The position numbers and the translations under genes are program-made. From Eubacteriaceae bacterium ES3 (lineage in GTDB: Bacteria > Bacillota > Clostridia > Eubacteriales > Eubacteriaceae): a DNA stretch of 32,000 bases. The stretch spans positions 396,680-428,679 of the forward strand of contig CP130741.1 in the NCBI GenBank assembly GCA_030586155.1. Direction: 5' to 3'. Below, one piece after another: positions 11,239 to 12,594 of the stretch (position 1 is the stretch's first letter; every line of letters starts with the position of its first letter). The notes beneath the pieces are model-generated. The model was not told the origin of the DNA and did no database searches. It saw only the letters and a program-made list of their open reading frames with translations.

Positions 11239-11508
11239 CTAACAGCAATCACAATCCGGCTCACCGCCGCTGAGCCAGCCATTGATAACGGCCACTGAAC
11301 AGCCAACGCCTGCTCTGACTGAAATCGCATCTGCGGGACAGTTTTTCGCGCAGGCACCACATTCCATGCAATTATCGAAATTGACAATTTTAGCCTTTTG
11401 GTTTTCTATCGAAAATACAGCGTGGGGACATACTTCCTTACATCGTCTGCATCCAATACATTTTTCAGCCGTCAGGTTGAGGGTAATAACATCTGAGAAA
11501 TATTTCAT
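11239..11508 (-). CDS. hgcB: Mercury-methylation ferredoxin HgcB (2x[4Fe-4S], C-terminal Cys pair)
   Basis: It has CIGCRRCKEVCP and CMECGACAKNCP, an additional conserved Cys in GVGCS, and a C-terminus ending CDCC. It starts 9 nt downstream of the hgcA stop on the same strand. Confidence 0.85.
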   Translation of the reverse strand: MKYFSDVITLNLTAEKCIGCRRCKEVCPHAVFSIENQKAKIVNFDNCMECGACAKNCPADAISVRAGVGCSVAVINGWLSGGEPDCDCC

Positions 11509-11517
11509 AAGGCCTCC

Positions 11518-12594
11518 TTATAAGCCAAAGGCTGCTAAAAGAATCATCAGGGAACCGACAATCGATGCAATAGCCAGCAGCGGAACAGCAATTTTCATTT
11601 CTTTTGTGACACCTGATAGAGAAGTAAAAGTTGATGATCCGGTAAAATTCATAGCAAAATAAGCAGAGACAGAGGGTAACAAAAGGAGATAACCAATCGA
11701 CATAATCAGCAGCTCTGAGAAATGCGATTCATTAAGCGCCATAAAGCCGCCTGTCCAAATGAGACCCAGGAGCCAACCCTTAAAAGCAAAAGCTTTTCCT
11801 GGAACAATGGGTAGCATTGCCGGCATCAGAACCGTGCCAGTAAAAAGTGATCCGACAATTAATAGAAAATCTGGGAGACCGAAAGGACGAACGGCAATTA
11901 AATTGATCAGAAATAACAGACCAAAAAATGAAAGCGACTTTTTAGCGGCGCCAAAAAATTCCAGTGGGGTTAAAACCAGTCTTTCTCGGAGGGTAAAGGT
12001 AACTCTGCGCATTTTATCAGTGGCCTTTAGTCCTGAACTTAAAAAGCTTTTGATATCGGCTGACCGAACTGGACCATAAACGACTGAGAATCCAGTGGCT
12101 TTACTGACTTCTTGAGCCGAAACACCAGGTGCCCCCAATTGAGGAAGAATGATCTGGCGGTGTGAGACAATTTCAGAAAGATATGTTTTTTCAATGCGAT
12201 TAATAATCTCTGACGTTCCAAAGGTCCCTTTTCCAGCAGCGCACCAGACATTGACTCCTTTAGTATCAATTACCATGATCCAGGCATCCAAAGAAGTGAG
12301 TTCCTTACGCAGTGCATCAAAGCTTAGTTTGTAATTGGCACTGACAAATACAGGGGTGTCGGCATCGGGATTGCCAACGGCATAGAGACCAGGATTAATT
12401 TTATAATTTTTCCGACCTATACCAAGACGCATTTTAATAGCTCCCAAATAATCTCCTGATTGCAGGTGTGTCGTAATAGTTGGGATTTTTCCCTTGGTAA
12501 TTTCAGTTTCACCTGTGATCCAGGGAGTATTAAGGTCATAGAGAGTAATGGCTTCCTCATGCTGGCAACAGCAGCAAGATTTTTCTTGACGCAT
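11518..12594 (-). CDS. hgcA: Mercury-methylation corrinoid protein HgcA (cytoplasmic corrinoid-binding domain plus C-terminal TM domain)
   Basis: The diagnostic cap-helix motif GVNVWCAAGKGTFGT is present (NVWCAAGKG at 12252..12226, Cys118). The flanking sequence is PGLYAVGNP...VFVSANYKLSFDALR...ILPQLGAPGVSA. The C-terminal third is hydrophobic, with 4-5 TM helices. I take the start at the ATG at 12594 (MRQEKSCCCC...), which has AAAGGA upstream. The 12678 start in the track adds an implausible AT-rich leader. Confidence 0.9.
   Translation of the reverse strand: MRQEKSCCCCQHEEAITLYDLNTPWITGETEITKGKIPTITTHLQSGDYLGAIKMRLGIGRKNYKINPGLYAVGNPDADTPVFVSANYKLSFDALRKELTSLDAWIMVIDTKGVNVWCAAGKGTFGTSEIINRIEKTYLSEIVSHRQIILPQLGAPGVSAQEVSKATGFSVVYGPVRSADIKSFLSSGLKATDKMRRVTFTLRERLVLTPLEFFGAAKKSLSFFGLLFLINLIAVRPFGLPDFLLIVGSLFTGTVLMPAMLPIVPGKAFAFKGWLLGLIWTGGFMALNESHFSELLIMSIGYLLLLPSVSAYFAMNFTGSSTFTSLSGVTKEMKIAVPLLAIASIVGSLMILLAAFGL

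Follow-up and report, generated by a model that had tools for sequence, protein, structure and literature searches.

The 32-kb window analysed here, a stretch of the chromosome of the acetogen Eubacteriaceae bacterium ES3, very probably carries a functional pair of the mercury-methylation genes hgcA and hgcB, most likely with a promoter of its own and possibly also reached by read-through from the gene upstream. Sequence comparison supports a canonical unfused hgcAB pair, and methylmercury production by ES3 is predicted by analogy, as all the hgcAB-positive cultures tested have methylated Hg (Podar et al. 2015, PMC4646819). ES3 and its sister species ES2 are described in their strain paper as Wood-Ljungdahl acetogens from the estuarine sediment of the Korean delta island Eulsukdo, with Acetobacterium fimetarium as the closest 16S relative. 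The genes are canonical and already labelled in GenBank, and knowledge of the system is unchanged: the hgcA product matches at 100% identity the NCBI entry 'mercury methylation corrinoid protein HgcA [Eubacteriaceae bacterium ES3]' and the hgcB product is WKY48097.1, 'mercury methylation ferredoxin HgcB'. A search of the literature found no paper tying hgcA to Acetobacterium or Eubacteriaceae genomes.

Identity and ancestry of the gene pair

Both proteins were recognised by the NCBIfam hidden Markov models (HMMs) of their families. HgcA scored 452.1 bits against NF040863 (HgcA_corrinoid; cutoff 275, E = 1e-135) with profile positions 1-323 of 325 covered, and HgcB scored 124.6 bits against NF040864 (HgcB_ferredoxin; cutoff 99, E = 1e-36). 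An initial annotation, made from the letters of the window, had named the pair from its motifs and proposed an HMM comparison; both proteins pass these equivalog cutoffs and all the motif features are present. The two genes lie 9 nt apart on one strand, as had been noted, with the gap reading GGAGGCCTT; the gaps in related loci are typically 1-25 nt. The hgcA frame opens with the ATG at 12594 and closes with the stop codon at 11520..11518 (Table 1).

The only Pfam domain of HgcA is PF03599 (residues 61-184, E = 1.8e-15), and the cap-helix motif NVWCAAGKG with its Cys118 stands at the positions first given for it. The pattern N(V/I)WC(A/S)AGK was found in 161 of the 164 HgcA relatives, the Cys column is invariant across 86 aligned homologues, and the ES3 protein carries the N(V/I)WCA(A/G)GK block that characterises HgcA. 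A search of PDB chains by sequence returned matches to CFeSP (corrinoid iron-sulfur protein) and none to HgcA; residues 43-186 align to the C-terminal corrinoid domain of CFeSP, and in the alignment with 2h9a Cys118 is opposite the cap-helix Thr. HgcA is defined by having Cys rather than Thr at this position (PMC7305189).

The membrane domain was delineated in an AlphaFold2 model built from 86 more diverse homologues (54 close ones and 32 Desulfitobacteriaceae-type sequences), which reached a mean predicted local distance difference test (pLDDT) score of 81 and a predicted template modelling score (pTM) of 0.69; a first model from the 54 close homologues had a pLDDT of 56.7 and was discarded. 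The model has a mixed alpha/beta N-terminal domain followed by five long helices at residues 202-233, 240-260, 269-292, 296-315 and 326-355, which bears out the multi-helix membrane domain of the initial annotation. In a Foldseek search the best match was 9a0b, the integrative model of HgcAB from Pseudodesulfovibrio mercurii ND132 (E = 2e-20, 41% identity, 324 columns), followed by CFeSP structures; 9a0b surfaced only in this fold search.

In HgcB, Pfam identified Fer4 domains. The two CxxCxxCxxxCP motifs, the extra cysteine and the terminal CC described earlier were all found, and the C-terminal tail holds at least one cysteine, as is expected of the family. The extra cysteine (Cys73 in ND132) as a feature of HgcB and the role of the ND132 C-terminal cysteines have been described previously (PMC7305189).

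Among 5.8 billion proteins searched, the nearest HgcA was that of ES2 (77-78% identity), and the others, from Clostridia-type metagenome-assembled genomes and metagenomes, reached at most 65%. Identity was 59-65% to Clostridia-type sequences as against 51-57% to the Desulfitobacteriaceae-type clade. Both reading frames are intact, and all the invariant residues of the 86-sequence HgcA alignment are held by ES3. It departs from columns conserved at 90% or more at 21 positions, mostly conservatively and never in the cap helix. The ratio of nonsynonymous to synonymous substitution rates (dN/dS) of hgcA against ES2 is 0.086, with dS saturated, and resembles that of the neighbouring genes. The amino-acid identity between ES2 and ES3 is likewise 78% for HgcA and 73-81% for the products of the flanking tetR, radical S-adenosylmethionine (rSAM) and GGDEF/EAL genes. 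The G+C content of hgcAB (43-46%) and its G+C at third codon positions (GC3) are like those of the neighbouring genes, and no hgcA homologue was found among 72,556 plasmids. Taken together, the intact invariant residues, the dN/dS, the neighbour-like divergence and composition and the lack of a plasmid homologue point to a gene pair that ES2 and ES3 inherited from their common ancestor and have retained under purifying selection. Recent horizontal acquisition or plasmid carriage was rejected on the same G+C, GC3, ES2 divergence and plasmid results.

Transcription of hgcAB

As described initially, the nitroreductase gene and hgcA have a very AT-rich spacer of 143 nt (19.6% G+C) between them. 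No other intergenic region measured in the window is as AT-rich, the rest having 29-36% G+C. Within it we identified a candidate promoter for hgcAB. Its TTGACA at 12698..12693 had been noted before, together with a poor -10; the former stands, whereas the latter hardly does, as the hexamer GATTAT is extended by TG and the site scored 10/12 in the promoter scan. Only one promoter-like site in 3.1 kb scored better, and when the spacer was shuffled, an equally good site arose about 0.5% of the time. The ES2 counterpart, TTGACA-17-(TG)GACTAT, ends 73 nt before the hgcA ATG, and in the alignment of the two upstream regions the promoter block and the ribosome-binding site are conserved islands amid diverged sequence. 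Since ES2 has no nitroreductase gene upstream, hgcAB most likely has its own promoter, and we consider it likely that this TG-extended site drives the pair. The question of promoter or co-transcription, which the initial annotation had left open, is thereby answered in part, with additional read-through in ES3 as a possibility.

The strongest alternative is that ES3 hgcAB owes most or all of its expression to a nitroreductase-hgcA-hgcB transcript, of which it would form the tail and which would start from about 13623..13615, the TTGACA of the spacer being incidental. All three genes are on one strand, and a perfect extended -10, read directly as TGcTATAAT at 13623..13615, precedes the nitroreductase gene. 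Besides, the spacer holds no terminator-like fold and no Rfam match, and it folds no better than its shuffles (z = -0.09). However, in ES2 the upstream gene, which encodes a ChW-repeat/leucine-rich repeat (LRR) protein, is on the other strand, and TTGACA, TG and GAyTAT are retained at a nearly equal distance from the ATG. The nitroreductase itself has no homologue in the ES2 locus and none within 6 kb in any of 53 related hgcAB loci, and a site of such quality is rare among the shuffled spacers. We therefore regard dependence on the nitroreductase transcript as possible and considerably less probable than transcription from the promoter next to hgcA. The same survey led us to reject the nitroreductase as a functional partner of hgcAB. 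The start of the nitroreductase gene was placed at 13580, which follows GGAGG, instead of at 13592, the first ATG of the open reading frame (ORF).

ES2 has the same frame as ES3, with GGDEF/EAL ... hgcA-hgcB and tetR-rSAM, and the slot between GGDEF/EAL and hgcA (12738..13789 in ES3; locus L001, 4336..6000, in ES2) differs in cargo: a TM1586-type nitroreductase on the hgcA strand in ES3 and a ChW-repeat/BspA-type LRR protein on the opposite strand in ES2.

At the other end of the pair, the 104-nt hairpin that follows hgcB folds with -47.9 kcal/mol (z = -8.15), and none of 200 shuffles folded as well. No RNA family was found in the whole window at the Rfam gathering thresholds, so the AT-rich leader of hgcA holds no known riboswitch. 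AT-rich palindromes in the leader (12614..12640 in ES3; L001 5968..5987 in ES2) were considered as operators and left as speculation, because they are unlike in the two strains and such repeats are expected at 20% G+C.

Several points weigh against a functional pair with its own promoter. The -10 hexamer matches at 4/6 positions in ES3 and 3/6 in ES2, and its conservation was judged from one comparison species, ES2. There is no terminator between the nitroreductase gene and hgcA, so that read-through is possible in ES3 and the promoter need not be the sole or main source of the transcript. The cap-helix region was modelled as non-helical at a pLDDT of about 59, as is expected without the cofactor. 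The words mercury, hgcA and corrinoid do not occur in the strain paper.

Table 1. Features at and around hgcAB (positions in the 32-kb window)
Feature	Position	Strand	Remarks
hgcA coding sequence	11518..12594	-	358 aa and stop; corrinoid-binding domain, then membrane domain
hgcA ribosome-binding site GAAAGGA	12600..12606	-	conserved in ES2
Cysteine run Cys7-Cys10 of HgcA	12565..12576	-	four cysteines in a disordered tail; HgcA begins MRQEKSCCCC
Cap-helix motif NVWCAAGKG	12226..12252	-	residues 115-123; Cys118 codon 12243..12241; predicted cobalt-ligating thiolate
HgcA transmembrane domain	11530..11991	-	residues 202-355; five helices, AlphaFold2, pLDDT mostly 70-93; hydropathy agrees
hgcA-hgcB gap GGAGGCCTT	11509..11517	-	9 nt; holds hgcB ribosome-binding site GGAGG
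hgcB coding sequence	11239..11508	-	89 aa and stop; 2x[4Fe-4S] ferredoxin
First HgcB CxxCxxCxxxCP motif CIGCRRCKEVCP	11425..11460	-	residues 17-28
Second HgcB CxxCxxCxxxCP motif CMECGACAKNCP	11335..11370	-	residues 47-58
HgcB Cys70	11299..11301	-	12 residues past Pro58 of the second motif; counterpart of ND132 Cys73
HgcB C-terminal tail CDCC	11242..11253	-	Cys86, Cys88, Cys89
Candidate sigma-70-type hgcAB promoter, TTGACA-18 nt-TG-extended GATTAT	12669..12698	-	TTGACA 12698..12693; -10 ends 74 nt before ATG
Spacer, nitroreductase stop to hgcA start	12595..12737	-	143 nt, 19.6% G+C
TM1586-type nitroreductase family gene	12738..13580	-	upstream neighbour; 280 aa; Pfam PF14512; NCBI start and name
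Long G+C-rich hairpin with A-run and T-run flanks	11126..11229		probable bidirectional terminator for hgcB and convergent tetR
rSAM-tetR operon	9412..11126	+	365-aa radical SAM protein, 205-aa TetR; stop/start overlap
TetR-family regulator gene	10509..11126	+	convergent to hgcB
Low-molecular-weight protein tyrosine phosphatase (LMW-PTP)-type protein, NCBI name ArsC	8698..9114	-	below ArsC equivalog cutoffs
Two half-size ArsP_1-family permease genes	7602..8617	+	translationally coupled; both match N-terminal half of Pfam ArsP_1

Proposed mechanism, native role and control

By homology to the ND132 system, HgcA would be a membrane-anchored corrinoid protein in which the cap-helix Cys118 ligates cobalt from below ('Cys-on'). 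HgcB, with two [4Fe-4S] clusters, would reduce the cofactor to Co(I), which would then be methylated and pass the methyl group from CH3-Co(III) to Hg(II), while the handling of Hg(II) and CH3Hg+ probably falls to Cys70 and the flexible C-terminal cysteines of HgcB (Cooper et al. 2020, PMC7305189). S-adenosylmethionine is the methyl donor for the purified ND132 enzyme, and cobalamin with Co-S(Cys) ligation has been shown for the ND132 enzyme only (Zheng et al. 2024, PMC11588087). The genes would form a two-gene operon read from the promoter at 12698..12669 to the hairpin at 11229..11126, with nitroreductase read-through as a possible second input.

The proteins may also be genuine HgcAB with a native role other than Hg methylation, such as corrinoid- or SAM-dependent methyl transfer linked to metalloid or arsenic handling, and ES3 would then methylate Hg weakly, as a side reaction, or not at all. 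The hgcAB genes are frequently found near arsenic-resistance genes (Gionfriddo et al., bioRxiv 10.1101/2022.10.17.512643), and ES3 fits this with an ArsC gene and half-size ArsP_1-family permease genes within 3 kb. The two permease ORFs were also considered as a split or frameshifted ArsP gene, which was rejected, as they are separate, translationally coupled half-size genes. In three other loci (L003, L005 and L008), hgcAB is directly followed by the gene of a close homologue of the ES3 ArsC, ArsR/SmtB-family genes lie directly upstream of hgcA in 14 of the 53 related loci, and ArsR control of the ND132 hgcAB has been shown, the idea of an arsenic-linked role being raised in the same preprint. 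Yet in ES3 the rSAM-tetR operon, which is unrelated and on the other strand, stands between hgcAB and the arsenic-type genes, and no ArsC gene is found at the hgcAB locus of ES2. Moreover, none of the HgcAB pairs has a known alternative substrate, and the hgcAB-positive cultures tested all methylate Hg (PMC4646819). A different native role is thus unlikely, somewhat more so than dependence on the nitroreductase transcript, and we retain mercury methylation as the predicted activity.

The regulators around related hgcAB pairs were compared with those of the ES3 window. A profile made from 15 ArsR proteins encoded upstream in related loci matched none of the ORFs of at least 50 aa in the window, and the gene upstream of hgcA is the nitroreductase; ArsR control was thus rejected for this locus, which is not of the arsR-hgcAB operon type seen in ND132 and many Clostridia-type loci. 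In four other loci (L018, L026, L039 and L044), a Cys-rich MarR-like regulator of about 160 aa, with conserved CCG and C-terminal Cys motifs, replaces ArsR upstream of hgcA.

Control by the neighbouring TetR-family regulator (10509..11126) was weighed as well. The rSAM-tetR pair converges on hgcAB in both ES2 and ES3, a conserved arrangement that occurs in no other hgcAB locus examined, and TTGACAAGCTA is common to the hgcA and rSAM-tetR promoters of ES3. The rSAM-tetR promoter region (9316..9374) has TTGACA, an 18-bp perfect palindrome AGCTAGTGAATACTAGCT overlapping the spacer, and then TAAAAT, with a second copy of the palindrome, AGCTAGTGTTCACTAGCT, 17 nt further on (35 nt from start to start). 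These two perfect copies of AGCTAGT-N4-ACTAGCT (9322..9339 and 9357..9374) were found before the rSAM-tetR operon only, and the ES2 promoter has the same arrangement (L001 9399..9446). The two copies resemble a textbook pair of operators for TetR autoregulation. In both species this evident operator is confined to the rSAM-tetR promoter, and no copy with up to 3 mismatches was found near hgcA, which makes control of hgcAB by this TetR improbable. The 365-aa radical SAM protein scored under the cutoff of every named NCBIfam family. As no dedicated regulator adjoins hgcAB, its expression is probably constitutive, which is the simplest reading.

Related systems, the cysteine tail and neighbouring genes

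The pair that has been characterised genetically and biochemically is that of P. mercurii (Desulfovibrio desulfuricans) ND132, and ES3 shares its two-gene layout. In both, HgcA joins a corrinoid domain with cap-helix Cys (Cys93 in ND132, Cys118 in ES3) to a five-helix membrane domain, HgcB combines two CxxCxxCxxxCP motifs with an extra cysteine (Cys73 and Cys70, respectively) and C-terminal cysteines, and the structure models align over 324 columns at 41% identity. They differ in that ND132 is a sulfate reducer with an arsR-like gene co-transcribed with hgcAB, whereas ES3 is an acetogen with none upstream. Among Firmicutes, Desulfitobacterium metallireducens serves as the standard Hg-methylating strain (PMC5038027). 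Its HgcA, of the Desulfitobacteriaceae-type clade, has 55% identity and 75% similarity to that of ES3 across 325 residues and the same cap-helix block VIDTKGVNVWCAAGKG, but is shorter (334 aa) and without an N-terminal Cys-rich extension. Acetonema longum, too, is an acetogen. Together with Ethanoligenens harbinense and Clostridium termitidis, it is an hgcAB carrier among the non-sulfate-reducing, fermentative Firmicutes (PMC5038027, PMC4646819); these species belong to families other than that of ES3 and are likened to it by their carriage of hgcAB. As hgcAB in fermentative Firmicutes has been known for years, an hgcAB-positive acetogen is not new in kind.

Two further groups of proteins share domains with HgcA. 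The large subunit of CFeSP (AcsC/CdhE) of the Wood-Ljungdahl pathway has a homologous corrinoid-binding Rossmann-like domain (2h9a, 4c1n, 2ycl and 4djd, 22-28% identity over about 150 residues) but differs in its cap-helix Thr, its N-terminal [4Fe-4S] domain and triosephosphate isomerase (TIM) barrel and its lack of a membrane domain. The ES3 protein scored 82.5 bits against acetyl-CoA synthase gamma (CFeSP; NF003195), under the cutoff of 306, with the match limited to the last ~125 profile positions and thus without the N-terminal Fe-S and TIM-barrel domains of a full-length match. In the fused HgcAB-like family, e.g. of Pyrococcus furiosus, no methylation has been detected (PMC4646819); its domains are related, yet HgcA matched the HMM only partially (201 bits, cutoff 285) and the ES3 genes are separate. 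The initial annotation had named placement in a fused or CFeSP clade as what would speak against it, and HgcA falls below both cutoffs. That the candidate is such a non-methylating paralogue, for which one could cite the PF03599 domain common to HgcA and CFeSP and the true CFeSP that ES3 must also encode as a Wood-Ljungdahl acetogen, is highly improbable and, to the extent that sequence can tell, already refuted, given the HMM scores (with 452 against 275 for HgcA itself), the cap-helix Cys in place of Thr, the five-helix membrane domain and the separate hgcB gene.

So far, hgcAB alone serves as a genetic predictor of methylmercury production by microbes, and a cultured, fully sequenced Eubacteriaceae acetogen now joins the list of predicted methylators. 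In practical terms, an acetogen proposed for one-carbon (C1) bioconversion is a predicted methylmercury producer, and this capacity would be worth checking if such strains are given industrial gas streams, in which we infer that mercury may occur. Given the report of SAM as methyl donor (PMC11588087), an acetogen that has a true Wood-Ljungdahl CFeSP as well as the paralogous HgcA could also help to separate C1 metabolism from Hg methylation.

Apart from the canonical features, HgcA of ES3 bears a run of four cysteines near its N-terminus, where residues 1-12 were modelled at pLDDT below 50. A run of at least two N-terminal cysteines was found in 142 of the 164 HgcA relatives examined and is held by most of the Clostridia-type and Methanomassiliicoccales ones; Cys-rich tails occur in related loci in Methanomassiliicoccales, Synergistaceae, Victivallaceae and Dehalococcoidia sequences. 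The run is missing in all 120 HgcA of Desulfosporosinus/Desulfitobacterium type and in nearly all of the Deltaproteobacteria type, ND132 itself not being among those checked. A text search of the literature found no paper describing a poly-cysteine tail of HgcA. It is a speculation, and a doubtful one, that Cys7-Cys10 may form a second flexible arm that captures or hands off Hg(II) beside the C-terminal cysteines of HgcB. Such an arm would alter substrate delivery or methylation efficiency in the tail-bearing subclade. The idea could conveniently be tested in ES3, a cultured acetogen that has the tail variant and lacks an upstream ArsR repressor.

Elsewhere in the window, a cluster at 2550..6023 (+) encodes a radical SAM/SPASM protein, a 123-aa protein without Pfam match, a small 4Fe-4S ferredoxin, a fusion of a DGC domain with glycine-cleavage H protein and two more DGC-domain proteins, and it is followed by a major facilitator superfamily (MFS) transporter gene at 6377..7570. 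At the far end (26066..31625, +) lie the genes of a 1516-aa protein, which combines superfamily-1 helicase domains (AAA_11/AAA_12) with an endonuclease-like domain (MTES_1575/DUF559) at its C-terminus, and, after it, of an NYN ribonuclease/OST-HTH (LOTUS) protein; the two may be a defence or mobile-element-related pair.

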